Positions 5,590-40,413 of a DNA stretch of 64,000 bases are shown here, piece by piece (the stretch's first letter is position 1; every line of letters starts with the position of its first letter). The stretch covers positions 10,364-74,363 of the forward strand of contig JAENZQ010000001.1 in the NCBI GenBank assembly GCA_016841185.1, in the 5' to 3' direction. The notes under the pieces were generated by a model. It searched no databases. It saw only the letters and a program-made list of their open reading frames with translations, and was not told where the DNA came from. Position numbers and translations under genes: made by a program. The stretch comes from Anaerovorax odorimutans (GTDB lineage: Bacteria; Bacillota; Clostridia; Peptostreptococcales; JAAYPU01).

Positions 5590-5597
5590 CTGGAATA

Positions 5598-8338: not shown

Positions 8339-8347
8339 TTTTCAATA

Positions 8348-11325: not shown

Positions 11326-11340
11326 GGTATTACCCCCTGC

Positions 11341-12162: not shown

Positions 12163-12166
12163 AACA

Positions 12167-14089: not shown

Positions 14090-14147
14090 GCGGTTCTCCT
14101 TTCCGCCCTATCGGAGATAGATAATCCATCACCGATAGGGCATTTGA

Positions 14148-14900
14148 TCACTTAAGCGGCTCAGTAATTTCACCTGATTCAGGGTCTACATTTATTACCT
14201 CTTCACCGGCAGGTTCAGTATCATGGCCGACTCGGGTACTGAATGCTTTGACCTGCTCAGAAAGCTTGGATATCAACACATATTCGTCAGCGGTCAGATC
14301 CCGATCTACAGCAAACTGAGCCTGTGAATAGGTGATACCGCTTGAATTGGTCGCCTTTTTCAATGAAAAGCGGGTAACTACGCTGTTCGATTTTTTACCT
14401 TTAGAAAGCAGCCTTTTGATGTAGCGGGAAAACTCTTTCAACGATCCTGTTGGCAATGAGAGTATCAACGGGAAAATCTCCCCTTCACGCAGTACATATA
14501 TCCTGCGGCGGTTCTTGCAAGCTTTGCTGCCGTTTTCCCCCGAACCGAACTGATTATATGGGCATTTGGCACAGCTTCCTCCGGGGTCTCCTTCGCCGGT
14601 TATACCATCAAAGCTTCCGCAATCCGGTGGGTTACTGCCTCCGGTATACTTGTCCTTGTAGTATGCATAAAGTGGATGATGATAAAGAATTACCGCTGAG
14701 AATTCCTTGACAGTATCAGGTTCTCCGGGATTTTCCCCGGGCACTTCGAATACTGTGCTGCCTGCGGACGGGATTTTTATGCGTTCAAAAGTCATGTCAA
14801 GACCGTCAAGTTCTGATGCCATTGCCTCGTCAAGATTGAAATTAGCGAGCTGAAGAAAACCTGTATTTTCGTTAATAGTTACGAGTTCATTGTTTTTCAT
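14148..14900 (-). CDS. Hypothetical replication-module protein with Cys cluster
   Basis: 250 aa, GGAGG RBS, ..PPDCGSFDG..GGSCAKCPYNQFG..SKACKNRRR.. (possible zinc-binding). No family named. Confidence 0.5.
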   Translation of the reverse strand: MKNNELVTINENTGFLQLANFNLDEAMASELDGLDMTFERIKIPSAGSTVFEVPGENPGEPDTVKEFSAVILYHHPLYAYYKDKYTGGSNPPDCGSFDGITGEGDPGGSCAKCPYNQFGSGENGSKACKNRRRIYVLREGEIFPLILSLPTGSLKEFSRYIKRLLSKGKKSNSVVTRFSLKKATNSSGITYSQAQFAVDRDLTADEYVLISKLSEQVKAFSTRVGHDTEPAGEEVINVDPESGEITEPLK

Positions 14901-15006
14901 GCTTTTATACCTCCGTAATTATGAATTTGGAATGTAATCTATATCATTGTTCTTTGAAACTTTGATCTTAGAACCGTATTTCGTGTACATTGCACTCTGA
15001 ACTTAT

Positions 15007-15423
15007 TTACCTTGCTGCTTTCCGCACAGTTACTGTTGTTTTTTCGAAGACATTCACAAGGCCTTTCAACCAGTCCGGAAGCTCGTCCCCATTCTCCGCA
15101 ATCTGTTCTTTAACAAATGCCGACAGAGAGTTTGCATTGACTGTTTCATAGATGAGTTCTCCGAAGCCTTTACTGCGCAGAGTATCAAACAGTTCTTCCT
15201 TCATGCCTGCGGCAGCACTGGCTCTTGTTGTCGTTGAAAGGCAGAACATTGTTCCTGCTCTTGTGAAGTTTTGCGTCTCACTGCTGATCATCAGCTCAGA
15301 CAGGCGGTATTCAACATCGTCAATCTCCGCATTTATGCTTTTCAGTTCCTCTTCAACAGCCTTCTTTGCCTCGCGCAGCTCCTTAAGGTGGTCAGCAAGT
15401 TCAAACATCGCATTATTGCTCAT
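15007..15423 (-). CDS. Coiled-coil phage protein (possibly Sipho_Gp157-like)
   Basis: Start set to ATG at 15423 (GGAGG 7 nt upstream). N-terminal coiled-coil ..LKELREAKKAVEEELKSINAEIDDVEYRL... Weak family guess. Confidence 0.4.
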   Translation of the reverse strand: MSNNAMFELADHLKELREAKKAVEEELKSINAEIDDVEYRLSELMISSETQNFTRAGTMFCLSTTTRASAAAGMKEELFDTLRSKGFGELIYETVNANSLSAFVKEQIAENGDELPDWLKGLVNVFEKTTVTVRKAAR

Positions 15424-16920
15424 AGCTTTCACCTCCTTCTGGAGCAAAGGGGTTTGTTCCTTTGCGGTAGTCGTCTATTAGCATTTTTGCAAGATCTGCC
15501 TTATTGCGCAGAGCTGTCAGAATTTTTGAGTCTACGGTACCCTTGGCGATAAGGTAGATATATGTGCAGCCGTTCTTCTGTCCAACTCTATGGATGCGGG
15601 CTTTTGTCTGCTCAAAATTCGACATGGAGTAATCAAGGGAGTAAAATACCATTGTGCTTGCAGCGGTTAGTGTAATACCAAGTCCAGCAGTTGCAATCTG
15701 GCCTACAAACACCATGCAGTCAGTATCATATTGAAACCGGTGGATTTGCTCTTGGCGGTCCTTAGTTGCACCATAAATACACGCATAGCCGATGTCCTTC
15801 TTCTCCAGCATCCTGCATATGGCATGGATTTCAGGAATAAACCTTGCTATGACAACCAGCTTATGTCCTTCTTGAATACTGCTTTCAAGGATATCTTCAA
15901 GAGCATTTAACTTGGCATCACTGACTTGCTCGATTTTCCCACCGTCATCGCTTCCGATGAAGCCCCCGGTTAATTGCGAAAGGCGAAGCAAGCGTGTTAG
16001 TATGTTTGTTGCTGTTACTTCTCCTGCTGACAGCTCAGTATAGCTTTGTTTGACAAGCTCTTTATATTTTTTCAAAGTTACAGGTTCAAGCTCAATATAG
16101 CGAATAATATCGGTGGTTTCCGGCAAATCCAGGCACTCCGCTTTGGTCGCCCGAAACGCAATGCTGTGAATCCTTTTCATCAAATCCTGTTCCATTGATT
16201 TTTTCAGCACCGGTGTATGGTTGCCATAGCCAACCATGTTGAAATACCGGTTTCGGAATGCATAAAAACTGTTACCAAAGACACGAGGATCAAGAAACTT
16301 ATACTGGCTGAATACATCTATGGCTTTGTTAGTTATAACCGTTCCTGTCAGTAGGAGCCGATACCGTGCAAGCAAGCCCAATCGGTGCATTGCTTTTGAA
16401 ACCGCCGTATTATGAGTTTTAATTTTGTGTCCTTCATCGGCAACGATAATGTCAGGATGCCAGTTTGCCAGTTCCTTTTCCATTCGCCATGCAGATTCGT
16501 AGTTGATTACCACTACATGGACACCTTCGCCAGTTAAAAATCTTAGTTGTTGGATTTTCTTTTGAATCGTGCCATTAAGGACTATAAGCTGATATGGGAA
16601 ATTTGCGAACCGTTTAAACTCGTCTTCCCACACTCCCAGAATGGAAAGCGGCGCAACTATTAGCACACGTTTTATTCTTCCTGCAGCAAGCAATGCTCCT
16701 ATAATGGCGATTGAGACAAGAGTTTTCCCAGTGCTGGTCAGCCCATTTCCATCAGGAGCGCTGCACCCCATCCGGAAATGGCAGAAACACCACCACCCTT
16801 CAGAAGTTCGAATAGACTGCAGATGAAATTGAAAGCACGAATCTGATGCTTGTATGGTCTGCCCTTTATGGGCATTGGAATTATTTGCTGCACTTTTGCA
16901 TTGCTCATTGAGGCTTGCAT
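15413..16920 (-). pseudogene. SNF2-family helicase interrupted by a 1-nt frameshift inside motif I
   Basis: Upstream ORF (start ATG at 16920, GGAGG RBS) reads ..RPYKHQIRAFNF..GAALLMEMG then stops (16738). The downstream ORF in the -1 frame continues LTSTGKTLV..., and joining them restores the SNF2 motif I (xLLxxEMGLGKT-like). Later motifs are present: DEGH (..IVADEGHKIK..) and the helicase C-terminal motif (..QTKARIHRVGQ..). Confidence 0.75.
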
Positions 16921-17023
16921 CTTATATCCTCCATCCTTCAATTTTGAGGGTTGGCCAACTCTCTGACTCAATGCTACTCGAATTGTTAAAGCCTGTCTGG
17001 ACATCTAAAGTCCATGTTTTGGG

Positions 17024-17092
17024 CAAAAAAATAGCCATTATGCAGTAAGGTTTTTGCGCCTTTTTTGCATAATGGCTTAAAATCTCATTATA
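17024..17092 (-). promoter_or_regulatory. TATAAT element followed by a long terminator-like hairpin plus U-run, upstream of the SNF2 operon
   Basis: Minus-strand TATAAT = plus 17087-17092, immediately followed by ATGAGATTTT (half of the 19-mer seen at 5571/5932). Hairpin GCCATTATGCA (17034-17044) / TGCATAATGGC (17067-17077), followed on the minus strand by UAUUUUUUU. Confidence 0.4.
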
Positions 17093-17110
17093 ATAGCCGG
17101 TTTAAAATAT

Positions 17111-17136
17111 AAAAAGTTGGACTTCCGAAGTCCAAC
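17111..17136 (-). terminator. Intrinsic terminator of the ImmA-like gene
   Basis: GTTGGACTT-CCG-AAGTCCAAC perfect 9-bp stem immediately after the stop codon, followed on the minus strand by UUUUU. T-run on the other side as well (bidirectional). Confidence 0.7.
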
Positions 17137-17142
17137 AATTTT

Positions 17143-19062
17143 TTAACTTATCATTTCTTTATATGCCTTCGCACAAAGAGGGGAAAGTCCCAAGGCTTCC
17201 AAAACTTCATTGCATTCATATATTGAATGCCCTCTATACGAATGGATAAGCTTTTTATACGCCAATTGCTGTGGAGTGTTATTGAGAGTATATCCGGCAA
17301 GCTTTAATATCTCTTCACTGTATGTAGGGCTTAGCTCCAATCCTATGCAGATTGCCACAACGGTTTCTAAAGTTGGATTGTTAAGTTCATTATTTTTTAT
17401 TCTGTCATATGTTTTTCCTGAAAGCAAAGTCTTTTCTATAAAAACAACCTTATTGTAGCCTTTTCTTTTGATATGTCCACATACCGCTTGGGAAAATGTC
17501 TGGGTTGTGCGGCTCAAATGCTGACCTTCTTCGACGAATTCTTCGTGAAATTTCTTTAGCTCTTCTGAACGATTAAATACCTCCATATTATGCTTGTCCG
17601 GATTAAATGTCGGCACTCTGTTATAATCCGGTGTAGCTTTACGGAACATTATAGAATCGAGGTATACTACAATGTCCATTTTGGAGGCTTTATTTAACTT
17701 TAAATCAAACAGAAGGCAACATTCATCTACATGCAGTTTTGCATAGTCTGTAAGATCAAGGCTTCCATTTTCTAATCTTTTAATATACTTGGAGTCATTA
17801 ATTACATAATGACCGTCAACATAAATAAAATTGCCGCTGTCTATGATCTTTGCAAATTCCGGATTTGCATAGTATTCAAAAAAGGAATCGCTTAGGCTAA
17901 TACTGTATGTTTGGTTATTTTGCAATGAGTCTGCCTTAAATGAATAATTGCTGATAAAGTGGTCATTAACGTATGTATATACGCCTTCAGCTTCCTTATA
18001 TCCAAGGTCAAGCATCCTTATTTTGGCTGCTATCCTTGACACCTGGAAGAAGTCAGCTAATTCATACAAGACATTTTCCATTATATTTAACCTGTCGTGA
18101 GTACCAAAAAGGAGCTCATTCTTTTTAATTAGCTCCTCAATCTTTTTGATAGTCGTTGATTTAGGCATAAGGATGCGAGGTGCGATTCCGTTAGCATGCC
18201 ATTCCATCCAGTCTTCTGGCGTCCATTGCTTTTTGTATTTAGTTGTTTCGTTTACTCTACAGCTTATGAGCAAAGCATCGCTGTTATATGTCTTAACTAA
18301 CTCATGGTATTTTCTATGCTTATACCAGTGAACACATTCATGAATAATGGTATTGTTCATGCACCCTACGTTTCGCATGAAATAAACATTAGGATCCACG
18401 AGAATAGTTCCTCTTGAAACTTCCAAAGGCTTATATGTTCTTTCATTTCTGTCGTAATATTCTATCGTACAATCTCCAAAAACTATTTGACCAAATATAG
18501 TGAAATGCTTTGTTAACTGGATTTCCTTAACCTTAAGCCCCATTCTTTTCGCTACTTCATCTACCGGAATAGGCACAGGAGTACTTAATGCTTCTGGGAA
18601 AAATTCACTTAGAAACTCGGTAGCAACATCGTCAAACTGTTCCTTTTCTATAATTGGCACTAAATACTCAGACAGTCGGCCTAATTTGCTTTCTCTGTAC
18701 TTGTTGTATATTGAAACAGAGTTGATTTGAAAATTCTGAATTCCGTCATCAAGATCAGCCTTACAGGAGATACGGAACCATTGTTCTATACCGTCATTTT
18801 CGCGATTCCTTCGCACTGTTTCTGCTATTTCAACTTCGGCTGAAACAATTACATCAAATAAAATACTATTGCCTGGTGAATCGGTTATGTCAATCGTTAT
18901 AATGTCAAAATCGGATAAAGCCGCTTCATCCGGTGATTGCACGCGGTATGAGTTGGATTCCAGCTTATCCGGGTTGTCCTCAATATACTCGGACAATTCG
19001 TCAAAGAGTTCATTGTAATACATATTTGCAATAACATCTCTGAACGAGCTGACGCTTGCCAT
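17143..19062 (-). CDS. Large ImmA/IrrE-family (M78-like) zinc metallopeptidase domain protein, 639 aa
   Basis: Start set to ATG at 19062 (GGGAGG 6 nt upstream; the track start is a TTG). HExxH motif ..NTIIHECVHWYKH.. in the middle of the protein, with about 230 aa N-terminal and about 340 aa C-terminal regions that I cannot assign. Divergent from an XRE HTH gene. Confidence 0.7.
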   Translation of the reverse strand: MASVSSFRDVIANMYYNELFDELSEYIEDNPDKLESNSYRVQSPDEAALSDFDIITIDITDSPGNSILFDVIVSAEVEIAETVRRNRENDGIEQWFRISCKADLDDGIQNFQINSVSIYNKYRESKLGRLSEYLVPIIEKEQFDDVATEFLSEFFPEALSTPVPIPVDEVAKRMGLKVKEIQLTKHFTIFGQIVFGDCTIEYYDRNERTYKPLEVSRGTILVDPNVYFMRNVGCMNNTIIHECVHWYKHRKYHELVKTYNSDALLISCRVNETTKYKKQWTPEDWMEWHANGIAPRILMPKSTTIKKIEELIKKNELLFGTHDRLNIMENVLYELADFFQVSRIAAKIRMLDLGYKEAEGVYTYVNDHFISNYSFKADSLQNNQTYSISLSDSFFEYYANPEFAKIIDSGNFIYVDGHYVINDSKYIKRLENGSLDLTDYAKLHVDECCLLFDLKLNKASKMDIVVYLDSIMFRKATPDYNRVPTFNPDKHNMEVFNRSEELKKFHEEFVEEGQHLSRTTQTFSQAVCGHIKRKGYNKVVFIEKTLLSGKTYDRIKNNELNNPTLETVVAICIGLELSPTYSEEILKLAGYTLNNTPQQLAYKKLIHSYRGHSIYECNEVLEALGLSPLCAKAYKEMIS

Positions 19063-19226
19063 ACCGTACCTCCCTAATAACATTTCATCATGCAGACCAG
19101 ATATTTCCTTATGTAAATTATAGCATAAATTGCGAAAAACACAATAATTAATTTGCGAACTCAAATTTTTGTTGTGTTTTAACCAGCTTTATGATATTCT
19201 TTATATTACAAGGCGAGGTGACAATT

Positions 19227-19442
19227 ATGGCCGTTAGCTATAAAAAACTATGGAAACTCTTAATTGATAAAGATATGAAAAAGAAAGATTTAAGAGAAGC
19301 GGCTGGTATTAGTACATCTTCTATGGCAAAACTCGGCAAAAACGAAAACGTAACTACTGATGTGCTTGTGAAGATTTGTAAGGCCTTAAAGTGTGATATT
19401 TCAGATATTATGGAGATTGAGCCGGATGACAAAGATAAATAG
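19227..19442 (+). CDS. Small XRE-family helix-turn-helix protein (71 aa)
   Basis: ATG at 19227 with GAGGTG 6 nt upstream. MAVSYKKLWKLLIDKDMKKKDLREAAGISTSSMAKLGKNENVTTDVLVKICKALKCDISDIMEI is a canonical Cro/C1-type HTH. Confidence 0.85.
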   Translation: MAVSYKKLWKLLIDKDMKKKDLREAAGISTSSMAKLGKNENVTTDVLVKICKALKCDISDIMEIEPDDKDK

Positions 19443-19479
19443 AGCTATGCTTATGTAAATACATAAAGGAGTGCGTATT

Positions 19480-22400
19480 ATGACTGCAAATCAGAAAAAA
19501 CTAATTAACCTGTTAAAAGAAATGTTCCAGTTCGATCAGGCTGACCTCGATTTTGGAATTTACCGCATCATGCGGATGAAACGGGAAGAGATCAGTCGTT
19601 TTATTGAAGAAGACCTTCCCGCGCAAATAACCAATGAGCTACGCGAACTTGTTTCGGTATCCGCCGAAGTTGATATGGCAGAAATTGACAAGCAGGTAAC
19701 AGACGCAAAATCTTTGAATATAAGCGAGACTGCAAAAGCTTCCATTATTGCTGAGCTTGAAGCAAAGAAAAAAGCTCTTGCAGAAAAGATTGACATATCA
19801 TCAGTAGAGGCAGATGTATACAACCATCTGACAAATTTCTTTTCCCGTTATTATGATGAAGGCGATTTTATCTCCCAGCGCCGCTACAAGGACGGTGCTT
19901 ATGCCATCCCTTATGAGGGCGAGGAAGTAAAGCTATACTGGGCAAACGCTGACCAGTATTATATAAAAACAAGCGAGTATTTCAAGGATTATACATTTAA
20001 GACCGCTTATGGGGATACTGTGCGCTTTAAACTGGTTGAAGCCGAAACTGAACAGGACAACAACAAGGCGAATGAAAAAAGGTTCTTTCAGCTCCATACA
20101 GAAAAACCGTTTGAATTAGTCGACGGAATTTTTACGATTTACATGGAATATAAAAACGGTGGAAAGAAAAATCAAGATGAATGCATCGGCGAAATCGTCA
20201 AGGCTTTTTCCGAGGCACAGGCTCGATATACACAGTTCTCCGCATTGTTAGCGACAAGTGATGGCAAAACGCTGCTTGAGCGGCAACTCAAACGGTATAC
20301 TGCGCGCAACACATTTGATTATTTCATCCATAAGGATTTGGGTAAATTCCTGCGTCGAGAACTGGACTTTTATATAAAAAACGATGTTATTTTCCTTGAC
20401 GATATTGATGAACAAGACGAAGCTAAGACAAAAGAGTATCTGACCAAGGCTAAAGTTATCCGCAAGATTGCTCACAAGATAATAGCTTTCCTTGCCCAGA
20501 TTGAGAATTTTCAAAAGAAGCTGTACCTGAAAAAGAAATTTGTGGTTGAAACAAATTACTGCATTACGCTTGACCGCATCCCGGAGGAATTGTATCCCGA
20601 AATTGCCGCAAACGACGATCAGCGTGAGGAATGGGTGCGCCTTTTTGCCATTGACGAAATCGAAGGCGATTTAACCCAGCCCACATACTCTGTGCCGCTG
20701 ACCGTAGAATTTTTAAAGGCAAACCCTTACCTTGTGCTGGATACGGCATTTTTCAGTGCGGAGTTTAAAGATAAACTTATCGCAGGCGTAGACAATTTGG
20801 ATGAAAACCTTGATGGGTTATTAATACATAGTGAGAATTTTCAAGCCCTTCAATTATTACAGACAAGGTATAAAGGACAAATCAAATGCATTTATATCGA
20901 TCCGCCTTATAACGCAAAATCAAGTGAGATATTATATAAAAATAATTATAAGCATTCCTCTTGGTTAAGTCTTATGTCAGACAGAATAAAAGCCTCTCAA
21001 ACACTTTTTAACGATAAACCTGTTTTTATTTGTGCAATTGATGAGGTTGAACAAGAACGTTTAGGTATATTACTTTCCCAATTATTCAATGAAAATTATT
21101 TTGGCAAAACCGCTGTAAGCATAGTTCATAATCCATCAGGACAGCAGGGAGATAATTTTTCTTATACCCACGAATTTGCATACTTCATTTATAATATTCC
21201 AGGAAGAAGCATTGCTGAGCAACTTAGGGAAGATCCAAATGAATGGGATAAGAGAAATTTTAGAGACGTTACGGGCGACGAATCCTTGCGAACAGCAGCT
21301 AAAACCTGTTTTTATCCTATCTTAATCAAAGATGGGACTATCATCGGTTTTGGGGATGTTTGTAATGATGATTATCATCCAGAAGTTAATGTATTTAGAG
21401 ATGATGGAGTTATCGAAGTATATCCGATTGATCCTCAAGGTATAGAAAGGAAATGGAGATTTGGAAGAGATACCGTAGAAACAATTAAAGATCAACTATT
21501 AGTCAACTATATAAACAATCGTAAAGTTTATGATATCCAGCGTTTAAAGAAGACGTTTAATTATAAATCATGTTGGCATGCCTCCATCTATTCGGCTAAC
21601 AATTATGGAACTCAACCATTAAATCAAATGTTTGGATATCAACCATTTTCATATCCAAAGTCAATATTCACTGTTAAAGATTGTATTTACGCTGGCCTTA
21701 ACGAGCAAAAAGCAGCCACAGTTTTAGATTTTTTCGCCGGCTCCGGCACCACTGCTCATGCAGTTATCAATCTTAACCGAGAAGATGGCGGAAGACGTAA
21801 ATATCTCCTTGTAGAAATGGGTGAATACTTTGACACCGTAACAAAACCACGTATTCAAAAAGTAATTTATTCTATGGATACCGAAACACAAAAAGGCTGG
21901 CGTGATGGTAAACCTGTTTCCCGCAAAGGTTCATCCCACGCATTCAAGTACCTGCGTCTCGAGTCTTATGAGGATACATTGAACAATATCGTACTCAGAG
22001 GCGGACAATACGATATGCTGGGCAGTGCCCGGGAGGGTTATCTCCTTTCCTATATGCTTGACGCTGAAGCTGAAGGAAGCAGCTGCCTGCTAAATATTGA
22101 CAAACTGGACAAGCCCTTTGACTATAAAATGAACATTACTCGTAATCTGGAGAGCCGCGAGCAGCCAGTCGACCTTGTTGAGACCTTTAACTACCTGATA
22201 GGGCTTACTGTTGCACGCAGCTATGCTCTCACAACCTTTGACGCCGAATTCATCATAGGCGAGTACGGTTCAGTTTCCGCTACCCTTAAAAATGGCAACA
22301 CCTATAAATTCAAGTCGGTTGAGGGCACTCTTCCGAACGGTGACAAAGCGCTTGTTATATGGCGCGAAATGACCGGCGATACTGTTAAAGACAACGCAGT

Positions 22401-22566
22401 TTTAGACGCATACTTCCGGCAGACGTTTGCCGATGCGCGTAGTTACAAGAAAATCTTTGTTAATTGCGACAATAACCTTCAGAACCTGCGCACAGAAAAC
22501 GAAAATTGGCGTGTTATCCTCATCGATGAGGAAATGAAAAAGCGCATATTTGAATACAGTGAGTAA
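19480..22566 (+). CDS. Type III Mod-like beta-class N6/N4 DNA methyltransferase with a long N-terminal extension (1028 aa)
   Basis: ATG at 19480 (AAAGGAG upstream). Motif IV IYIDPPYN (DPPY at 20899-20910) preceded by ..LLIHSENFQALQLL.., as in EcoP1I-type Mod. Motif I FAGSGTT at 21733-21753. About 470 residues precede DPPY. Confidence 0.85.
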   Translation: MTANQKKLINLLKEMFQFDQADLDFGIYRIMRMKREEISRFIEEDLPAQITNELRELVSVSAEVDMAEIDKQVTDAKSLNISETAKASIIAELEAKKKALAEKIDISSVEADVYNHLTNFFSRYYDEGDFISQRRYKDGAYAIPYEGEEVKLYWANADQYYIKTSEYFKDYTFKTAYGDTVRFKLVEAETEQDNNKANEKRFFQLHTEKPFELVDGIFTIYMEYKNGGKKNQDECIGEIVKAFSEAQARYTQFSALLATSDGKTLLERQLKRYTARNTFDYFIHKDLGKFLRRELDFYIKNDVIFLDDIDEQDEAKTKEYLTKAKVIRKIAHKIIAFLAQIENFQKKLYLKKKFVVETNYCITLDRIPEELYPEIAANDDQREEWVRLFAIDEIEGDLTQPTYSVPLTVEFLKANPYLVLDTAFFSAEFKDKLIAGVDNLDENLDGLLIHSENFQALQLLQTRYKGQIKCIYIDPPYNAKSSEILYKNNYKHSSWLSLMSDRIKASQTLFNDKPVFICAIDEVEQERLGILLSQLFNENYFGKTAVSIVHNPSGQQGDNFSYTHEFAYFIYNIPGRSIAEQLREDPNEWDKRNFRDVTGDESLRTAAKTCFYPILIKDGTIIGFGDVCNDDYHPEVNVFRDDGVIEVYPIDPQGIERKWRFGRDTVETIKDQLLVNYINNRKVYDIQRLKKTFNYKSCWHASIYSANNYGTQPLNQMFGYQPFSYPKSIFTVKDCIYAGLNEQKAATVLDFFAGSGTTAHAVINLNREDGGRRKYLLVEMGEYFDTVTKPRIQKVIYSMDTETQKGWRDGKPVSRKGSSHAFKYLRLESYEDTLNNIVLRGGQYDMLGSAREGYLLSYMLDAEAEGSSCLLNIDKLDKPFDYKMNITRNLESREQPVDLVETFNYLIGLTVARSYALTTFDAEFIIGEYGSVSATLKNGNTYKFKSVEGTLPNGDKALVIWREMTGDTVKDNAVLDAYFRQTFADARSYKKIFVNCDNNLQNLRTENENWRVILIDEEMKKRIFEYSE

Positions 22567-22578
22567 GGAGGCAGCATT

Positions 22579-25500
22579 ATGGCAAGAAGAAATAGGCAAC
22601 GTGCTAATGAGCCGCAATTAAAATTTTATCAAAAACTTCTGCTGAACCGCTACCTGCTCAGTCAGTTTAGTGTATCAAGTTTTAAAGAATTGGCTGCAGA
22701 ACTTAAGAAACCTGCCTTTGAAGAAATTGATAACGAAAGCGTTACCGGTTTTTACAAACAAATCGTTTCTCAACTCGGCACGAAATGCAAAATCCCTCAG
22801 GAAAAGCTGGCGGAATATGATTTGAATATAGTGGCCCATTTAAAGAAGATTAATGAAAGGCGGGATGAACCGCTTTCCCTCAAATACTTTCAATACCTCT
22901 CGCTGCTTTTTGTTGAGTACTACCTTGACAACTACTTCAATAACCGGCAAGGCTTACTTGACGGTCTAAATGAGCTTGTTGCCGATTTCAACGAGCAGTA
23001 CCTCAATGATGCAGTTGAGTTGTATGAAGAAAGTGACTTGAACAAAATTGCAATCTGGAACGCCACCGGTAGCGGCAAAACCCTGATAATGCACATTAAC
23101 TACCATCAGTACATTCATTATTCAAACTGTAAATTGCCGGACGGCGCTACATATATCCTTCTAACGCCAAAGGAAGGCTTATCCCTCCAGCATATTGAGG
23201 AATTTGAGGTATCTGGAATACCAGCTAAAATATATGATAAGTCAGCAAGCCGCTGGATGCGTTATGAAGGCGAAATTAGCGTTCTCGAGAATACAAAACT
23301 GGGAGAAAAGGATCAAGATACAATTGTATCTGTTAAGCGGTTTGGAAACCAGAATGTTGTTTTTGTGGATGAAGGCCACAGGGGGTCATCATCCGGTAAG
23401 GAAGGAAAATGGCAGAAATTTCGCGATGAGCTTTGCTCAGACGGTTTTTCGTTCGAATATTCCGCAACCTTTGGGCAGGCTATAGCTGCTTCCTCAGACA
23501 AATCACTTGCCAAACGTTACCAGAAGTGCATTATTTTTGATTATTCATACAAATACTTTTATCAAGACGGATATGGCAAAGACTATAACATCCTTAACCT
23601 TGCCAACGACAGCGATGAAGCAAAACGAAAGCTTTATCTGACAGCTTGCCTAATTGCGTTTTATCAACAAAAAAAGATATATTTGACATGCAAAAACGAA
23701 TTTGAACGCTTCAATATTGAAAATCCGCTGTTTGTTTTTGTCGGAGCTAGTGTAAATGCCGTCCGTACTGAGCGTGGACGCAAAGTTTCCGACGTTGTGG
23801 ATATCCTGCTGTTTTTCAAGGATTTTATTTCTAATACCAGTGAATCGGTTGCAAATATACAACAGTTACTATCCGGAAACACAGGATTGCTTGACAATCA
23901 TAATCGCGACATTTTTAGAAATGCTTTCCCATACTTGGAAAGCGAAGGGTTGTCCGCCGCTGATCTTTATAATGATGTTTTGAAAACAGTATTTAACTGT
24001 ACTTCCATTGGATCCATGCTCCATGTTGAGAATCTGCGCGGAATTAGCGGTGAAATTAGTTTACGTCTTGGCGAGAACGAACCCTTTGGTGTTATTAATG
24101 TCGGGGATGACAGTGCTTTATTAAAGCTATGTTCAGAAAACGGCTTCCATACAGATACCATATCATTCTCAGAGTCGCTGTTTCATAAAATCACAAAGCC
24201 GGATTCCACAATCAATATATTGATTGGCTCAAAAAAATTCACCGAGGGCTGGAACTGCTGGCGTGTATCGACAATGGGGCTTATGAATGTTGGCCGTAGC
24301 GAGGGAAGCGAAATTATTCAGCTTTTTGGACGAGGCGTACGTCTGAAAGGCTATTCACTGTCGCTGAAACGCAGCGCTTTTTATAAAAAGGAAAATCCAG
24401 AAATTTCTGTACCGAAGTATATAAGCATTTTGGAAACACTGAATATTTTCGGCGTCCGCGCTGATTATATGCATCAGTTTAAGGAATTCCTTGAAGCCGA
24501 AGGTGTTCCGCCCGAAAAAGGCCAACCGATAGTATTAACAATGCCGGTTATCCGGAACAAACTCTATAAAAAAGATAACCTGTACACATTGCGTGTCAAG
24601 GGCGGGCTTGATTATAGAAAGCATGCTAAAAAACCTTTTTTGAGATATGTTGAGGGTATCGTTGTTACGCTGGATTGTTATGCAAAGGTGCAGTTTGAAA
24701 CATCAAAAACACATTCATCAAGTGAGGTGACAAAAAATCAAACGACACTCAAACCCGAACATTTAGCTTTCCTAAACTATAATCGCATCTATTTCGAAAT
24801 ACTGCAGTATAAGAATAAAAAAGCGAGATACAATTTTAATATTAATAAAAATGATATATATGATTTGCTGAACAATCCTGAATATAACACCTCATGGTAC
24901 AAATTGCTCATTCCTGAAGATGAGCTGAAAATACGTAACTATGAAGACTACAGACGGTTTGAAAAGATAGCTGTTGCCTTGCTAATAAAATATTTCGACA
25001 GGCTCTATTACTTGGAGCGCAATCGCTGGGAATCGATGGTTGTTGGTTATGAGCTTGTCGCTATGAGTGATGAGGGTGATAATTTCCTGAACGAAGAAAA
25101 GGACGAATATACCATAAGCATCAGCAATACTGATGAAAATGAAGCCATGATTACCTGGCTTAAACGAATAATAGAAAAAGTAAATGAGGCGAAAGCGAAA
25201 AAACAAATCCTGGACTTTATTGAACAACGTGCTGACATGGAAGTTATCGGATTTCCAGCTCACTTATATGATCCTCTGCTTTATCTGGCAAAGAATAATG
25301 TGGAAATCGTTGTATCACCGGTGGCTTTAAACGAAAGCGAAGCAAAATTCATAAAAGATTTACGCCAACACCTTAAAGACAATGAAGCATTGTTTTCAGA
25401 TAAAGAACTTTACATTATCCGAAACAGGAGCAAAAAAGGAATTGGATTTTTTGAAGATAGCGGTTTTTATCCGGATTTCATTATGTGGCTTATTGTCAAT

Positions 25501-25779
25501 GGAAAACAATATATAACATTCATTGACCCACATGGTCTTAGGCAAGAAAGCATTACTTCAAGCAAAATCAGGCTGCACAAAAGCATTAAAACCAGTATTC
25601 AAAGCAAGCTTGCAGAACCATCGGTAGTGCTTAATTCCTTTATTTTGTCACCTACAAAATATGCAGAACTTCCGGACAGAAGTACCCCTAAAGCAGAGTG
25701 GATAGAAAATAATGTTCTTTTTATGGAGGACGTCAATTACATTCAGAGACTTTTTGACACAATTAAAAAACAAGCTTAG
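22579..25779 (+). CDS. Res-like SF2 helicase (ResIII/DEAH type) with C-terminal PD-(D/E)xK-like region (1066 aa)
   Basis: GGAGG RBS, 12 nt after the methyltransferase stop. Walker A ..NATGSGKT.. (23068-23082), motif II ..VFVDEGHRGSS.. (23368-23379), motif III SATFG, motif VI ..QLFGRGVRL... C-terminal ..GFYPDFIMW..(17 aa)..FIDPHG... Confidence 0.8.
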   Translation: MARRNRQRANEPQLKFYQKLLLNRYLLSQFSVSSFKELAAELKKPAFEEIDNESVTGFYKQIVSQLGTKCKIPQEKLAEYDLNIVAHLKKINERRDEPLSLKYFQYLSLLFVEYYLDNYFNNRQGLLDGLNELVADFNEQYLNDAVELYEESDLNKIAIWNATGSGKTLIMHINYHQYIHYSNCKLPDGATYILLTPKEGLSLQHIEEFEVSGIPAKIYDKSASRWMRYEGEISVLENTKLGEKDQDTIVSVKRFGNQNVVFVDEGHRGSSSGKEGKWQKFRDELCSDGFSFEYSATFGQAIAASSDKSLAKRYQKCIIFDYSYKYFYQDGYGKDYNILNLANDSDEAKRKLYLTACLIAFYQQKKIYLTCKNEFERFNIENPLFVFVGASVNAVRTERGRKVSDVVDILLFFKDFISNTSESVANIQQLLSGNTGLLDNHNRDIFRNAFPYLESEGLSAADLYNDVLKTVFNCTSIGSMLHVENLRGISGEISLRLGENEPFGVINVGDDSALLKLCSENGFHTDTISFSESLFHKITKPDSTINILIGSKKFTEGWNCWRVSTMGLMNVGRSEGSEIIQLFGRGVRLKGYSLSLKRSAFYKKENPEISVPKYISILETLNIFGVRADYMHQFKEFLEAEGVPPEKGQPIVLTMPVIRNKLYKKDNLYTLRVKGGLDYRKHAKKPFLRYVEGIVVTLDCYAKVQFETSKTHSSSEVTKNQTTLKPEHLAFLNYNRIYFEILQYKNKKARYNFNINKNDIYDLLNNPEYNTSWYKLLIPEDELKIRNYEDYRRFEKIAVALLIKYFDRLYYLERNRWESMVVGYELVAMSDEGDNFLNEEKDEYTISISNTDENEAMITWLKRIIEKVNEAKAKKQILDFIEQRADMEVIGFPAHLYDPLLYLAKNNVEIVVSPVALNESEAKFIKDLRQHLKDNEALFSDKELYIIRNRSKKGIGFFEDSGFYPDFIMWLIVNGKQYITFIDPHGLRQESITSSKIRLHKSIKTSIQSKLAEPSVVLNSFILSPTKYAELPDRSTPKAEWIENNVLFMEDVNYIQRLFDTIKKQA

Positions 25780-25781
25780 AA

Positions 25782-25826
25782 AGGCAGGCTGCTCATATAA
25801 TCATTTAGCTTGTCTTTGTTTTTCTG
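25782..25826 (+). terminator. Weak terminator-like hairpin after the helicase gene
   Basis: AGGCAGGCU-16 nt-AGCUUGUCU (9 bp including two G-U pairs that only work on the plus-strand RNA), followed by UUGUUUUUCUG. The long loop lowers confidence. Confidence 0.35.
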
Positions 25827-25891
25827 TATTAGGCTGTTGTTAATTTTTTTAACGGCTAAGTCTCTGCTAAATGATAGAAGGGGGGGTTATT

Positions 25892-27106
25892 ATGTATCAG
25901 TTAACAATTGAAGACATAGAGCGCAGTAATAGCCTTGCACTTCAACCGGGTCGAACTGCTTTTATTGATGAGTGCGGGAACTTCGGATTTGACTTTGAAG
26001 CTAAGGGAACTTCTGAAGCAGGTGGCCCTTCGCTCTATTATATTGTTTGCGCCGTTGTTGTAAAAAACGAGAATATTAGTGCTCTTGAAATTGAAGCTAA
26101 TAAAATTCGCCAAAATAATGGTTTTCAAACCGGAGAAATGAAATCTAGCTTAATAGGCAATAACCATAAGCGTAGAATAAAGATACTCACTGAATTGCTA
26201 AATCTTGATTTTTCACTGGTTATGCTTATTGCAGATAAACAAAAATTTTATAGGGATTCGCCTCTTACTAATTATAGGGAGTCATTCATAAAGTACCTTC
26301 ATCAAAAACTGTATAATGAAATGTACGCGGCATATCCAAAACTTAAAATCGTTGAGGATGAATATGGATTATCAGAGTTTCAAAAGGGGTATCGTGAATA
26401 TGTTTGTGCTAACAGACCACAACTAAACCTACTTAACGAATATGATTTTGATTATGTCAACAGTAAACATAGTCCGATAGTACAAATTGCAGATATTATT
26501 GCAGGTTCAACCATGCAGCACCTTTTAGACAATAAGGCTCCAAATGTCTTGAAAATATTCCAAGGCAAAATTAGGGGGCTTGTCAATTTTCCAAGCACAT
26601 ATTCTTCCTTCCTTGCAGGAATTAAGGCAGATAAAAGCTTTGACGAAAATATATATGTGTTAGCCGACCATTGTGCAACTCAATATATAGACTCTCATAT
26701 AGATACCGATGAAACAGATACAAGGATGCGTGTTTTGTTCTTAAAGCATTTGCTATGGGTAGTTCGTAATATTAATCCCCGTAAATATATTTCATCGGGC
26801 GAAATTATCAAGGTTCTATCCGACCTTTCTGATAGTAAGGTTCGTCGTGACTATTTATACCGAAGAATAATTGCTCCTTTGCGCGATGCTGGCGTAATTA
26901 TAGCCAGTTGTTCTCATGGCTATAAAATACCTACGTGTATTGATGATATCTATACGTATGTAAACCAAACAAATGGCATTGTTGGCCCTATGCTCAATCG
27001 TGTTGAAAAATGCAGACAACTTATTCTTTCTCAAACTGACGGTTCTCTTGATATTTTTGACGATCCTGCCCTAAAAAAATACAAGCGTTATTTCGGAGAT
27101 TATTAA
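25892..27106 (+). CDS. DUF3800 domain protein with winged-helix-like C-terminal region (404 aa)
   Basis: ATG at 25892 (GGGGGG 7 nt upstream). N-terminal ..TAFIDECGNFGF.. and later ..VQIADIIAGS.. match the two conserved DUF3800 motifs as I remember them. The C-terminus ..SSGEIIKVLSDLSDSKVRRDYLYRRIIAPLRDAGVIIASCSHGYKIP.. looks like a wHTH. Confidence 0.7.
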   Translation: MYQLTIEDIERSNSLALQPGRTAFIDECGNFGFDFEAKGTSEAGGPSLYYIVCAVVVKNENISALEIEANKIRQNNGFQTGEMKSSLIGNNHKRRIKILTELLNLDFSLVMLIADKQKFYRDSPLTNYRESFIKYLHQKLYNEMYAAYPKLKIVEDEYGLSEFQKGYREYVCANRPQLNLLNEYDFDYVNSKHSPIVQIADIIAGSTMQHLLDNKAPNVLKIFQGKIRGLVNFPSTYSSFLAGIKADKSFDENIYVLADHCATQYIDSHIDTDETDTRMRVLFLKHLLWVVRNINPRKYISSGEIIKVLSDLSDSKVRRDYLYRRIIAPLRDAGVIIASCSHGYKIPTCIDDIYTYVNQTNGIVGPMLNRVEKCRQLILSQTDGSLDIFDDPALKKYKRYFGDY

Positions 27107-27414
27107 CGGAACTTGCTGGACAATTTTTCTATTGTTTTTTATCATTTTTGCCTTATAATGAAGGAAAATGTCTAGCCGCTAAAATAAATACTATGAATTT
27201 TTTCTTCCAGGTAACACACATCTATCCTGTATTCTCAACCCCCCGTAAAAAAGGCGGTTATCTAATCTGGTAACTCAACTATAAATTTTCAAGGTTTTTG
27301 ATATGTTCCCACAAACAATAAAATAAAGGCTTCCTGACATTACCACAACTGGTAGATCGATTTTGAGAAAAGTTAAATGTCTGGAAACCCTTTATTTACA
27401 AGCTTTTTAGTTCT

Positions 27415-28779
27415 TCATTTCTTAACCCTTGACATCAATACTACCGTCTCCACGTGCACCGTATACGGAAACATATCCACCGGCTGTACTTCTTTTGTCA
27501 TATATCCATTTGCTTCAAGGTATTTCAGGTCGCGGGCAAGGGTAGAGGGGTTGCAGGAGACATAGACGATCCTTTCCGGCTGCATTTCAGTCATGGTAGT
27601 CAAAAGTTTTTCATCGCAGCCTTTTCGGGGCGGGTCTACTACTACCACGTCTGCTTTATAACCTTTTTTATATAGTTCCGGAACGACTTCTTCAGCTTTT
27701 CCAACGTGAAATTCGGTATTCTCGATATGATTAATCTCTGCATTTCTTTGAGCATCTTCCACTGCCTGCTGCACGGTTTCTACTCCTATGACTTTTTCGG
27801 CCTTCTTGGCAAGAAATAAGGAAATGGTGCCGATGCCGCAGTATAAATCAAATACGGTTTCATTGCCTGAAAGTTGTGCGTATTCCAAGGCTTTGTTATA
27901 AAGCTGTTCCATTTGTACAGGATTCACCTGATAGAATGATAACGGTGATATTTGAAATCGAACATCGGCGATACTGTCTATTATGTAACCTTTGCCGTGT
28001 AGCGTTATGTTTTTATCCCCCAGTATCACATTTGATTTCTTTGTATTGATGTTCTGCACCAATGTTGTGATTTCAGGCAGTTTTTTATTTATATTTTCAA
28101 TCATTTCATCTTTATTAGGTAGATGAGTTCCGTTAACAACAAGGATGAGCATGAATTCTTTGCTGTTTACACCTATTCTTGTGACGATATGTCTTAATAA
28201 TCCTTTTCCTGTCTTTTCGTTATATATAGAGAGCTTGAATTTCTTTATAATATGTTTTATTTCTTTAATAATCTTATCGTTTATCTCATGCTGAATCATA
28301 CAGGTATCGCATTGTATGATGTCGTGGCTTTTCTTCCGATAAAAGCCTATTTCTATTTGTCCATTTTTATCTGTCAGGGGAAATTGGGCTTTATTGCGGT
28401 ATCTTTCAGGAGAGTCCATTCCAATGACATCATGGATTTGTACCTCATGCAGGCCGCCGATTCGCCGGAGGTTGTCCGATACTATTTTTTTCTTTATTTC
28501 CAGTTGTTTTTTATAAGAAATGTTTTGTATCTGGCAACCGCCGCATTGATTGAATATCGTACATTGGGGATTGACTCTGAAAGGAGAATATTCAAGATAT
28601 TCCACTACTTTTCCTATGCCATAATTTTTCTTTAAAGTTATGACTTCAATCTTTACTTTATCGCCGATAACCGTTTCTTCCACAAATATTGTGAATCCGT
28701 CTATTTTTCCGATTCCTTCTCCGCTGTGTCCCATGTCGATGATTTCTATTTCGTATGTTTGATTAAACTTTATGTCCAT
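27415..28779 (-). CDS. rlmD: 23S rRNA (uracil-C5)-methyltransferase, RumA/RlmD (TrmA) family
   Basis: Start set to ATG at 28779 (AGGAG RBS). N-terminal TRAM-like domain, Fe-S Cys cluster ..CTIFNQCGGCQIQN.., SAM motif ..VFDLYCGIGTISL.., C-terminal ..YVSCNPSTLARDL... Confidence 0.9.
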   Translation of the reverse strand: MDIKFNQTYEIEIIDMGHSGEGIGKIDGFTIFVEETVIGDKVKIEVITLKKNYGIGKVVEYLEYSPFRVNPQCTIFNQCGGCQIQNISYKKQLEIKKKIVSDNLRRIGGLHEVQIHDVIGMDSPERYRNKAQFPLTDKNGQIEIGFYRKKSHDIIQCDTCMIQHEINDKIIKEIKHIIKKFKLSIYNEKTGKGLLRHIVTRIGVNSKEFMLILVVNGTHLPNKDEMIENINKKLPEITTLVQNINTKKSNVILGDKNITLHGKGYIIDSIADVRFQISPLSFYQVNPVQMEQLYNKALEYAQLSGNETVFDLYCGIGTISLFLAKKAEKVIGVETVQQAVEDAQRNAEINHIENTEFHVGKAEEVVPELYKKGYKADVVVVDPPRKGCDEKLLTTMTEMQPERIVYVSCNPSTLARDLKYLEANGYMTKEVQPVDMFPYTVHVETVVLMSRVKK

Positions 28780-28955
28780 TTTATTCTCCTGTTCAGTTAT
28801 TGGTTTCCGGTGACTACAGGTTGCTCTGCTGCGCTCATAAAGACAAGAAAACAAATCGCCGCGTCGGGAGGTTTTCGCGATGACAAGCAAATGATTTCTG
28901 CTCTGCGTTCGCAATGGCAACGAAAAAGATCATGGGCAGGCACAGAGACCGCCCC

Positions 28956-29702
28956 CTACAGATCGAATATTTCTCTTAGATTGACGCTTAGCCCTTCAAA
29001 ATAATAAGACTGGAGTGTATCATGCCCCTTGTAGGTAGAAAATTCTTCGATTTTACGATCCTCAAATTTGTAAACGAGCATTATCTTTTTCTGGCGATCG
29101 GCAATCCAGAATTCTTTGACACCTGATAACATATAGGTATTTAATTTGTCCACCATGTCTTTGGATCTTGTACTGGGTGATAGAATCTCTACAACAAGAG
29201 TAGGCGTCCCCATATAACGTCCTTTTTCGTTGACTGTACCCTCTGTATCGCAGGCAATTAGCAAATCAGGCTGCATGACATCCGGATCTTTAAAGTCCGG
29301 CTTAAAAAAATGTACATCGAAGGGGGCATAAAAGACTTTGCACTTTTTGTCTTTCAAATATTCTGCAAAGATTAAGTGGAGCTTTCCAGAAATCTCCTGA
29401 TGGAAAGTACTTGGGGAAGACAAAAGGATAATTTCTCCATTGATGTATTCCATTCTTAACTCGGTTTTTTCATATATTTCCATGAACTCTTCATAGGATA
29501 CCTTTTTGCCTTGGTATTGATAGTCCAGCGCCTCCTCTTTGACTGTTAAATATCGTTCAATATCTGTTATGTATGGCGAAAGTCTTACAGCCTTTTTTCC
29601 GTTCTTTGTTATGACCACTTCATGGTTGTCAATGACGTAGTCCAGGTACTTACCCAAATTTTTCTTGAATTCCGTAGCTGTAATGGTTTTCTTTAAATTC
29701 AT
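28956..29702 (-). CDS. Fusion protein: Phd/YefM-type antitoxin-like N-terminal domain plus Uma2 (DUF820) PD-(D/E)xK endonuclease-like domain
   Basis: N-terminus MNLKKTITATEFKKNLGKYLDYVIDNHEVVITKNGKKAVRLSPY (Phd/YefM pattern). C-terminal part ..EYINGEIILLSSPSTFHQEISG..QPDLLIACD..LVVEILSPSTRSKD..EFWIAD.. (Uma2 pattern). Confidence 0.65.
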   Translation of the reverse strand: MNLKKTITATEFKKNLGKYLDYVIDNHEVVITKNGKKAVRLSPYITDIERYLTVKEEALDYQYQGKKVSYEEFMEIYEKTELRMEYINGEIILLSSPSTFHQEISGKLHLIFAEYLKDKKCKVFYAPFDVHFFKPDFKDPDVMQPDLLIACDTEGTVNEKGRYMGTPTLVVEILSPSTRSKDMVDKLNTYMLSGVKEFWIADRQKKIMLVYKFEDRKIEEFSTYKGHDTLQSYYFEGLSVNLREIFDL

Positions 29703-39859: not shown

Positions 39860-39945
39860 CTTCGATGGCTGGCTACCTTAGCTGATCGCCTTAGGCCCTT
39901 TAGCTTTGCGCCCTTACCTTTCGGCAAGTTTGCCTTTATCGTGAG
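39860..39945 (-). promoter_or_regulatory. c-di-GMP-I (GEMM-I) riboswitch-like aptamer, copy A (its 3' end abuts the RBS of the 443-aa gene)
   Basis: Minus-strand RNA: CGAUAAAGGCAAACUUGCCGAAAGGUAAGGGCGCAAAGCUAAAGGGCCUAAGGCGAUCAGCUAAGGUAGCCAGCCAUCGAAGGAGAG. It shares the GGCAAAC / GNRA-capped hairpin / G(A/G)CGCAAAGC / GGCCUAA / GGUAGCC signature with the Vc2 and Clostridial GEMM-I aptamers I remember. Confidence 0.8.
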
Positions 39946-39981
39946 ATATTAATTGAAAGACTTTCTACAAATAAACTTTCC

Positions 39982-40071
39982 CTTCGGTTACTGGCTGCCT
40001 TAGCTTATCGCCTTAGGCCCTTTAGTTTTGCGCCCTTACCTTTCGATAAGTTTGCCTTTATCGGTAAAAAG
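39982..40071 (-). promoter_or_regulatory. c-di-GMP-I (GEMM-I) riboswitch-like aptamer, copy B
   Basis: Minus-strand RNA: ..ACCGAUAAAGGCAAACUUAUCGAAAGGUAAGGGCGCAAAACUAAAGGGCCUAAGGCGAUAAGCUAAGGCAGCCAGUAACCGAAG. The P1a hairpin is kept by changes relative to copy A (UUGCC/GGUAA versus UUAUC/GGUAA). Confidence 0.8.
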
Positions 40072-40129
40072 TTCTTACAATAATATCTACATATATCCTT
40101 GGTTGTCCTACAATCATTTATTACTTAAA

Positions 40130-40210
40130 TCAATGTGCATGTACAACAGTAAAGCTGAGTAATACAATAAATAGAAATAAGACACCAGATAATATTAAAT
40201 TTCTTTTCAT
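40130..40210 (-). CDS. 26-codon sORF encoding a signal-peptide-like peptide (MKRNLILSGVLFLFIVLLSFTVVHAH)
   Basis: My own translation. ATG at 40210 with GGAGG 8 nt upstream, TGA at 40130-40132. It lies between the two riboswitch pairs and resembles the signal peptides of the two beta-helix paralogues. Confidence 0.35.
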   Translation of the reverse strand: MKRNLILSGVLFLFIVLLSFTVVHAH

Positions 40211-40301
40211 TACAGATATCCTCCATATCCTTAATTGCTTATATTATCTATTTCTGCCTTATATTTTATGCTTTTGTTCATGTAAATATAAAAAATCTTT
40301 T

Positions 40302-40388: not shown

Positions 40389-40413
40389 ATTTTAAGGATA
40401 AAAAAAACTTTTT

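Follow-up and report, generated by a model that had tools for sequence, protein, structure and literature searches.

Here, we describe a gene at positions 25892-27106 of a 64,000-nucleotide stretch of Anaerovorax odorimutans DNA (contig JAENZQ010000001.1; called the window below), whose product joins an N-terminal DUF3800 domain to a family-specific C-terminal tail. This gene is a passenger that is self-contained and moves horizontally; in the window it follows a type III restriction-modification (R-M) operon, and it is not a dedicated third subunit of that system. It is a real gene with a fixed architecture, both of its domains are selected, it moves independently of its neighbours, and the contexts in which it is found are rich in defence and mobile-element genes. 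With moderate confidence, we read it as an autonomous mobile module of DUF3800 domain and tail, which would be a nuclease of defence or inter-element conflict that is independent of R-M and carried as accessory cargo. The gene and its two domains are as follows.

25892-27106, plus strand: DUF3800-plus-tail gene, 404 aa (open reading frame (ORF) and translation, full-length homologues at 55-94% identity, omega).
25958-26596, plus strand: N-terminal DUF3800 domain, residues 23-235, with a predicted RNase HII-like fold (Pfam, Foldseek, residue conservation).
26624-27103, plus strand: C-terminal family-specific domain, residues 245-404, with a winged helix-turn-helix (wHTH)-like core (AlphaFold (AF2) model, predicted local distance difference test (pLDDT) 87.5).

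In the ORF listing the longest frame runs from 25871 to 27106 (411 aa), which gives ATG 25871 as an alternative to ATG 25892. The latter is preferred, and ATG 25871 is unlikely, because AGGGGGGG lies 6 nt ahead of ATG 25892 as a ribosome-binding site and relatives in other contexts have the N-terminus MYQL, aligned with this start. The ORF 25892-27106 of an earlier note, which had been made from the letters of this DNA alone, is thus genuine.

A word-indexed search detected 398 relatives, and the best 120 of them are mostly about 400 aa long, with near-full query coverage and 54-94% identity. Using a hidden Markov model (HMM) of the tail only, an exhaustive search retrieved 739 clusters (50% identity), 609 of them at E<=1e-10. 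Almost without exception, full-length matches are about 370-430 aa long and carry the tail at the C-terminus, indicating that the tail is specific to this architecture of ~400 aa. Purifying selection acts on both domains: overall, pairwise omega is 0.10-0.14, with similar values in the two domains (0.08-0.14 in the N-domain), and comparisons with solitary copies, with copies in type I R-M loci and with copies in type III R-M loci give like values. Close relatives (e.g. P0040, 66% identical) are labelled 'DUF3800 domain-containing protein' by NCBI, there is no NCBIfam model for the gene product, and in PHROGs it has only a weak match to phrog_9243, a family of unassigned function.

The two DUF3800 motifs named in the earlier note, FIDECGNFGF (residues 24-33) and QIADIIAGS (residues 198-206), were confirmed, and Pfam PF12686 (DUF3800) matches residues 23-207 with E=1.3e-11 and 45.9 bits (cutoff 21), covering positions 2-146 of the 149 in the profile. 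Both the N-terminal DE motif (D26-E27 in FIDECGN) and the QxxD motif (Q198..D201 in QIADIIAGS) are present. The acidic residues of the N-domain are D26-E27, D115, D156 and D201, and the window protein keeps the full set; D115 is followed by K116, and this D115-K116 pair is kept in at least 90% of family sequences. In the AF2 model built from 40 homologues (pLDDT 78), the N-terminal part is an alpha/beta domain. Its top Foldseek match in the PDB is the RNase HII of M. jannaschii (1eke; E=5.8e-4, probability 1.00, TM 0.50 on target), further matches are T. kodakarensis RNase HII and human RNase H2A (1eke, 2dfh and 3puf; E=5.8e-4 to 1e-2), and among viral models that of a phage DUF3800 protein ranks first (E=9.7e-7). 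The strand-end motif IDECGN also resembles DEAGRG, a motif of RNase HII. No sequence homology to these top structural matches is detectable, even with a family profile, and RNase HII and RNase H2A are housekeeping enzymes, whereas the window family is patchy and mobile and has an extra C-terminal domain. From the model, an RNase H-like fold is predicted for the N-domain, which agrees with the RNase H-like prediction for DUF3800 in published work (PMC7736814, PMC10910872, PMC12669027).

The tail had been described in the earlier note as a winged helix of the last ~130 residues. In the AF2 model of the isolated tail (pLDDT 87.5), two long helices are followed by a helix-helix-beta-hairpin unit (residues 302-345, after helix 275-294) and a 30-residue helix, with a helix-helix-helix-beta-beta core at residues 275-347. 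This topology fits the description, but the domain has ~160 aa (residues 245-404) and no significant wHTH match. Winged-helix domains (KAT6A WH, ORC2 WH, H1x, Fur, ScpB) are among its weak Foldseek matches, the Pfam scan gave no match at E<=1 and so no wHTH family, and a PDB search with a sequence profile of the tail gave nothing significant (best E=0.32). Because none of Foldseek, Pfam and the PDB profile search gave a significant match, the winged-helix reading of the model is plausible only. When members at 25-49% identity are compared, only P234, R331, S339, G343, Y344, K345 and P347 are invariant, and all of them except P234 lie in or beside the predicted wing, whose sequence is LRDxGVIIASxxxGYKIP. 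This beta-hairpin wing most likely binds a nucleic acid.

In the mechanism that we propose, the tail would recognise nucleic acid of foreign or aberrant structure, for which an RNA:DNA hybrid or a replication intermediate is a plausible candidate, and the RNase H-like domain, with its carboxylates D26-E27, D115, D156 and D201, would then cut the recognised structure in a metal-dependent manner. The gene product would add a second layer of defence or of conflict between elements, one that does not depend on R-M. In the window, the gene is passenger cargo, placed last in an operon that is led by a helix-turn-helix (HTH) gene and belongs to a type III R-M system within a variable R-M hotspot. The nuclease activity, the substrate and the defence phenotype are what we infer for the gene product.

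The operon in the window has the order HTH_26, Mod, Res, spacer and, as its last gene, the DUF3800 gene.

19191-19442, plus strand: HTH_26 (Cro/C1-type) regulator gene, which opens the operon (Pfam E=4.5e-22).
19471-22566, plus strand: Mod methyltransferase of a type III R-M system (PADLOC MTase_III E=3.5e-192).
22579-25779, plus strand: Res helicase-nuclease of the type III R-M system (PADLOC REase_III E=5e-204; Pfam ResIII).
25780-25891, plus strand: spacer between Res and the DUF3800 gene, 112 nt, with a weak hairpin, a T-run and a TATAAT hexamer in the loop.

The earlier note had offered two roles, a third component of the ResIII/methyltransferase pair or a stand-alone effector. As to the first, no conserved co-occurrence of the gene with this Mod/Res pair was found. 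Among 29 other genome loci, a Res relative stands beside the gene only in the near-identical L001 and is absent from the remaining 28; L007 has only a weak local Mod-like match (E=1.3e-7). No neighbour family is common to more than 4 of these loci, and most copies of the gene are preceded by a spacer of their own. With Mod/Res relatives absent from 28 loci and no neighbour cluster in common, an obligate type III partner was rejected, and the third-component proposal is not supported.

The gene is also found behind R-M systems of another type. It closes type I operons of the order HTH_26-HsdR-HsdM-HsdS for P0017 (78%; L031-33), at L006 (73%) and at L002 (88%), while the type III layout is repeated for P0005 (81%; L036-38) and in the near-identical loci L051-L065. 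The HTH_26 gene (68% identity in L031, L006 and L036) forms the left bookend of both versions, type I and type III. At the nucleotide level, homology of the type I loci to the window covers only the HTH gene and 25851/25876-27110, so that the DUF3800 block extends from 16-41 nt before the ATG to 4 nt past the stop codon. For the identical or near-identical proteins P0270 and P0271, the HTH-Mod-Res-DUF3800 unit lies beside differing genes (flanks trmA-like; Rce1/IDH/aconitase; BlaR-like), and in L050 a shortened unit (a 696-aa Res remnant and the DUF3800 gene) is found beside SIR2/IS66. At L058, which is the same chromosomal site as L059, the R-M genes are missing and IS3 lies upstream, while the DUF3800 ORF is intact within a kept block equal to 25858-27439 of the window, showing directly that the gene can persist without an R-M system.

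The gene is poorer in GC than the helicase gene, as the earlier note had stated (0.361 against 0.390 in Res), and the contrast is larger at third codon positions (0.286 against 0.393 in Mod and 0.393 in Res). Together with the homology breakpoints that hug the ORF and the intact copy in the R-M-less L058, this third-position contrast bears out the suggestion that the gene is a separately acquired module. The stand-alone option also holds as far as a self-contained module is concerned, since solitary copies exist and L058 kept the gene without Mod and Res.

A weak hairpin between Res and the DUF3800 gene, also reported in the earlier note, is present at 25780-25817 (12 bp including G-U pairs, a 14-nt loop, then GTTTTTCTG; -13.2 kcal/mol), but its stability does not exceed chance (z=-0.99; 33 of 200 shuffled sequences fold equally well), and the terminator scan did not flag it. 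The TATAAT hexamer at 25796-25801 lies within the hairpin loop without a -35 partner, and the promoter scan flagged nothing in the spacer 25780-25891. As the block kept in L058 begins at 25858, the hairpin is outside the mobile gene unit. Since the hairpin is weak and the spacer has no promoter-like site, co-transcription is plausible in the window, where the gene is probably transcribed with the R-M operon through read-through of the hairpin. In the type I loci co-transcription is likely, because the spacer is tiny or the genes overlap.

Within the operon, the centre of Mod (about 20978-21939) is unrelated to, or only 71% identical with, the matching part of systems (L052-L056, L059, L062) whose identity elsewhere is 96-99%. 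Judging from the alignment, this segment is a probable swap of the target-recognition domain, which would change specificity.

The R-M operon is framed by the following features.

17143-19164, minus strand: M78-like 673-aa protein, divergent from the HTH gene, at the left hotspot edge (phrog_4031 E=1.4e-183).
27215-27410, no strand: conserved non-coding element of ~190 nt at the right island edge, with two 20-mers, an A-rich linker and a long hairpin.
27415-28920, minus strand: trmA/rlmD-like RNA uracil-5 methyltransferase gene, convergent (Pfam tRNA_U5-meth_tr E=7e-29).

A scan of metagenomes for the tandem 20-mer gave 74 loci (L066-L139), 61 of which have at least 1.4 kb of upstream sequence. 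Along with the 20-mer pair, the convergent trmA-like gene occurs about 200 nt away in 22 loci, and the M78-like (14 loci) and HTH (15 loci) pair occurs several kb upstream. Between the edges there are at least 20 different cargo sets, mostly R-M components of types I, II, IIG, III and IV (McrBC). As these frame features recur around varied R-M cargo, the window lies in a variable R-M hotspot. By local HMMs, only 2 of the 74 loci (L094, L117) contain the DUF3800 gene. It is an occasional last passenger of the hotspot, and the 20-mers belong to the frame and not to DUF3800. A role of the 20-mers as a DUF3800-specific binding site or RNA was rejected, given that 72 of the 74 motif-pair loci are without the gene and covariation is almost absent. 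A second DUF3800 Pfam match in the hotspot cargo clusters is outside this family according to the local HMMs, and the ten 'last gene' clusters that were scanned do not include it.

The right-edge element contains direct 20-mers at 27220-27239 and 27260-27279 (ATCTAnyCTGnnnnCTCAAC; 40 nt apart start-to-start; 2 matches against 0.18 expected) and a long hairpin of ~90 nt (about 27313-27406), with a U-rich tract after it on the minus strand. The element is conserved in type I loci too. It is strongly conserved in 43 dereplicated loci, where the adjoining TrmA-like proteins are 32-59% identical to that of the window; RNAalifold on these 43 copies detected almost no covariation, and no Rfam family matches 27215-27410. 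Most simply, the long hairpin would be the terminator of the convergent trmA-like gene, and for the element as a whole the candidate roles are those of a terminator, a site of protein binding, or an att or recombination site. In most near-identical loci the right homology breakpoints fall at 27439-27456, across four other contexts, and therefore about 330 nt of non-coding DNA travels with the gene. In L001, an IS256-family (Transposase_mut) element (4246-5588) is located 2 nt before the first 20-mer, and the homology blocks of L001 and the window overlap by 7 nt (window 27212-27218), which suggests a target-site duplication. At the left edge, the M78-like protein matches PADLOC capP (E=7e-9) and, weakly, Peptidase_M78, and a homologue is found in L036. 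By analogy with ImmA/ImmR or CapP/CapH, the M78/HTH pair may regulate the hotspot cargo.

An alternative explanation is that the gene product is a general R-M accessory, which works with type I and type III enzymes and is a true third component in this lineage. It would process restriction products or stalled translocation complexes, or act as a PrrC-like back-up when restriction is inhibited. In the clade of at least 73% identity, the gene repeatedly closes HTH-led operons of two R-M types, it overlaps hsdS by 8 nt in L002 and follows it by 17 nt in L031, the four-gene unit has moved jointly to at least 4 chromosomal sites, and distant members lie beside ResIII and methyltransferase genes (L007) or an Eco57I-type methyltransferase gene (L023). 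Nevertheless, we regard this explanation as unlikely: the differing R-M types offer no homologous component as a docking partner, 72 of the 74 hotspot loci bear R-M cargo without the gene, and L058 has an intact copy after the loss of R-M. In addition, solitary copies are equally under purifying selection, and most family members have no R-M neighbour.

PrrC and RloC, to which the L002 and L031 arrangements can be likened, are anticodon nucleases whose genes lie in type I R-M loci and are co-transcribed with hsd. By this analogy, a back-up role when restriction fails is conceivable. Their fold is unrelated, and the window family has neither an ABC-ATPase domain nor an anticodon-nuclease motif; besides, the DUF3800 members are mostly not linked to R-M and show no sign of latency control by R-M proteins.

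To return to the autonomous module, its relatives are found in a wide range of other contexts. Among relatives at 70-79% identity, one is alone in a region of resistance genes and insertion sequences (IS), one adjoins a HEPN gene and a type II R-M system, one lies beside a helicase-DUF2726 gene and a WGR/MoxR pair, and one opens the cargo of a Tn7-like transposon, with JetABCD after it. At 67% identity and below, relatives frequently stand alone among housekeeping genes, and others lie beside IetAS, a reverse transcriptase (RT) with a DRT4 match or a serine recombinase, or in plasmid accessory regions with AbiEii, toxin-antitoxin and resolvase genes. In L023 the gene directly follows an RT gene. 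Judged by raw adjacency, many relatives thus stand beside defence genes, and the lack of enrichment in defence islands that the earlier note had named as a refutation is not what was observed.

Two of these carriers have a structure of their own. The Tn7-like transposon (L141:1-17194) encodes TnsA, TnsB, TniB/TnsC, TniQ/TnsD and a TnsE-like protein, and its cargo consists of the DUF3800 gene, two small ORFs and a complete Wadjet system (JetA-D), in this order. In L026 (9140-21128; a metagenome-assembled genome of Clostridia), nine repeats of ~175 nt, all in the same orientation, stand behind almost every gene; at their ends the attC cores of integrons can be recognised (RYYYAAC ... GTTRRRY), conservation ends at GTT, and the DUF3800 gene is one of the cassettes. 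Like cargo of such elements ('moron'), the window gene is a lone cargo gene, lodged in a hotspot of variable content and conserved frame. The hotspot, Tn7-like and integron settings are carriers and not a protein family, and they show portability and a probable link to conflict, but not function.

Several results weigh against a defence nuclease. By sequence, neither RNase H nor any other solved structure was found in the PDB with the single sequence or the family profile, and the structural likeness to RNase HII is moderate (TM 0.45-0.50 on target, with TM-scores of 0.40-0.50 for the RNase HII and RNase H2A matches). Foldseek of the tail against the PDB gave nothing significant (best E=1.3), and no model of PADLOC-DB v2 matches the gene product at E<=0.01. 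No relatives were found in IMG/VR or GenBank phages. At 22 distant loci the neighbours are mostly housekeeping genes (metabolic or transport) and defence matches are scattered, so the defence association is not universal. In addition, D26 and D201 are lost together in some sublineages, and catalysis is therefore not always required. No activity or role is assigned to any DUF3800 protein in the searched literature, and in the available part of the CASK study the DUF3800 protein Csx32 is not a kinase substrate and is given no role (10.64898/2026.08.25.746378). A phage origin of the gene was rejected for want of relatives in IMG/VR and GenBank phages; the phage-related matches are the weak one to phrog_9243 and the single structural one to a phage DUF3800 model.

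The reading can be extended, tentatively, to the whole DUF3800-plus-GYKIP-tail family of about 740 clusters, which might be an unrecognised single-gene immune nuclease whose tail senses a structure specific to the invader. An RNA:DNA hybrid, R-loop or replication intermediate of the invader would be destroyed by the RNase H-like domain, and the gene would be a portable second line of defence on R-M operons, Tn7-like transposons, integron cassettes and plasmids.

The sublineages without D26 and D201 (P0056, P0058, P0063, P0134, P0139, P0143, P0150, P0157) keep the tail invariants. From their sequences, they are probably catalytically inactive paralogues, and the retention of the tail makes its binding the apparent core function. 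Such cases, together with the invariant residues in the C-terminal wing, would fit a regulator that binds nucleic acid by sequence or structure and acts, for example, on the expression of the island or operon or on a mobile element, with the RNase H-like domain being structural or a sensor. We find this improbable, because the acidic set is complete in the window protein and in most members, omega of the N-domain (0.08-0.14) is as low as that of the tail, the operon already has its HTH_26 regulator, and no DNA motif is specific to the gene, with the 20-mer pair present in 72 loci without DUF3800.

The flanks of the gene were compared with controls for inverted repeats. The best value in the window is 10.5 and the median observed value is 9.5, against a control 95th percentile of 12.5; the controls are clearly exceeded only by the L039/40 and L041-43 lineages, with L021 borderline. 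A transposon with terminal inverted repeats as a general feature was ruled out by this control-calibrated test. In the first lineage, a 52-nt inverted repeat with 90% complementarity surrounds the solitary DUF3800 gene (L039:6728-6779 / 8410-8461; also L040), and in the second there is a 27-nt inverted repeat (85%, with a perfect 20-nt core) around a solitary gene (L041:6894-6920 / 8226-8252; L041-43). Each arm holds a small palindrome, these repeats are lineage-specific, and they could be elements like repetitive extragenic palindromes, terminator elements or remnants of a carrier. A selfish mobile nuclease without host benefit, either homing-endonuclease-like or an unconventional transposase, is very improbable in our view: single-gene movement, breakpoints hugging the ORF, insertion between housekeeping genes, the cassette in the integron-like array and the two inverted repeats would fit it, but repeats above controls are confined to two lineages and not seen in the window, neither target-site duplications nor multiple copies per locus were seen, mobility in the Tn7, integron and plasmid settings comes from other machinery, and the fold matches RNase HII and not DDE transposases.

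The DUF3800 domain is known and is already suspected to be a defence-linked nuclease with an RNase H fold; it has been linked to retrons and to Cas12a2/a3 and Cas13 loci (PMC7736814, PMC10910872, PMC12669027, PMC13594972). In retron type VII, DUF3800 has an N-terminal DE motif, a C-terminal QxxD motif and a predicted RNase H2-like fold (PMC7736814), and it is fused to the RT in VII-A1 and separate in VII-A2 (DefenseFinder 'Retron_VII_2 DUF3800'). The window family has the Pfam domain, the DE motif, the predicted fold and the defence-system context in common with it, and the L023 relative directly after an RT gene adds to the likeness. The window differs in having no RT or msr/msd: no RVT domain was found in the 19 window ORFs scanned, which include every neighbour within about 10 kb, and no retron msr/msd RNA was found in the window by Rfam at the gathering threshold. 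In addition, the tail is restricted to the ~400-aa architecture of the window type.

TPR-DUF3800 proteins in Cas12a2/Cas12a3 loci, and Csx32 in the CASK operon of Cas13, are products of accessory genes with a predicted RNase H fold (PMC10910872, PMC13594972, PMC12669027, 10.64898/2026.08.25.746378). They likewise present a DUF3800 domain, a predicted nuclease, as an accessory gene of an immune operon. They differ in their partners, as the window family is found with R-M, Wadjet, other systems or none, and in the added domain. No TPR or Cas domain was found in the 19 window ORFs scanned, and the tandem-repeat search found no CRISPR-like array in the window. Eleven structured RNA motifs in Rfam, DUF3800-I to -XI, are associated with DUF3800 (Weinberg 2017). 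There is no Rfam match to them at E<=10 in 18800-27600 and none at gathering in the whole window or 10 related loci, and a known DUF3800-associated RNA motif near the gene was therefore rejected for the window and the related loci. In the searched literature we did not find the tail domain of this family and its invariant GYKIP wing, an architecture that stays fixed over about 740 clusters, or the carriage by two R-M operon types, a Tn7-like element and an integron-like array.

Some other features of the window were also recorded. Positions 1-19164 are phage-like and lie almost entirely on the minus strand, with two fusions of ParB and N6/N4 methyltransferase, an Ant/Bro antirepressor, a family A DNA polymerase, an NrS-1-type primase-polymerase and, on the plus strand, an Abi_2 gene. 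A 452-aa SNF2 helicase in the same region matches only the C-terminal half of the ZorD/DpdE models. The phage-like genes of the left flank are absent from other hotspot loci and so are not part of the frame; for the same reason, the island as the end of a conserved prophage was rejected. On the right, 28956-29702 (minus strand) encodes a 248-aa fusion of a Phd/YefM antitoxin N-terminus with Uma2, a putative restriction endonuclease, which has a strong match to PDC-S03, a candidate system in PADLOC (E=8.6e-58). At 39861-40496 (minus strand), two tandem pairs of c-di-GMP-I riboswitch aptamers, four in all with 70-79 bits each, lie just upstream on that strand of a 443-aa gene (38514-39845) with no Pfam match at E<=1e-5.

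In summary, the DUF3800-plus-tail family is a simple form of the domain to test, because one gene appears to act alone. It is a good experimental entry into DUF3800 biology, although nothing in it is mechanistically surprising so far. There are candidate catalytic residues (D26, E27, D115, D156, D201), a separate invariant surface (R331, S339, G343-Y344-K345, P347) and natural comparisons, with the gene found beside type III R-M, beside type I R-M and alone. The hotspot framed by the M78-like and HTH genes is also convenient as a natural set of R-M systems, of types I to IV, that have been swapped for one another. A defence phenotype would add a single-gene system to the catalogue and help to interpret the CRISPR- and retron-linked DUF3800 proteins. 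If the family does act as a single-gene immune nuclease, it would provide the first functional handle on the DUF3800 domains of retrons, Cas12a2/a3 and Cas13 systems.

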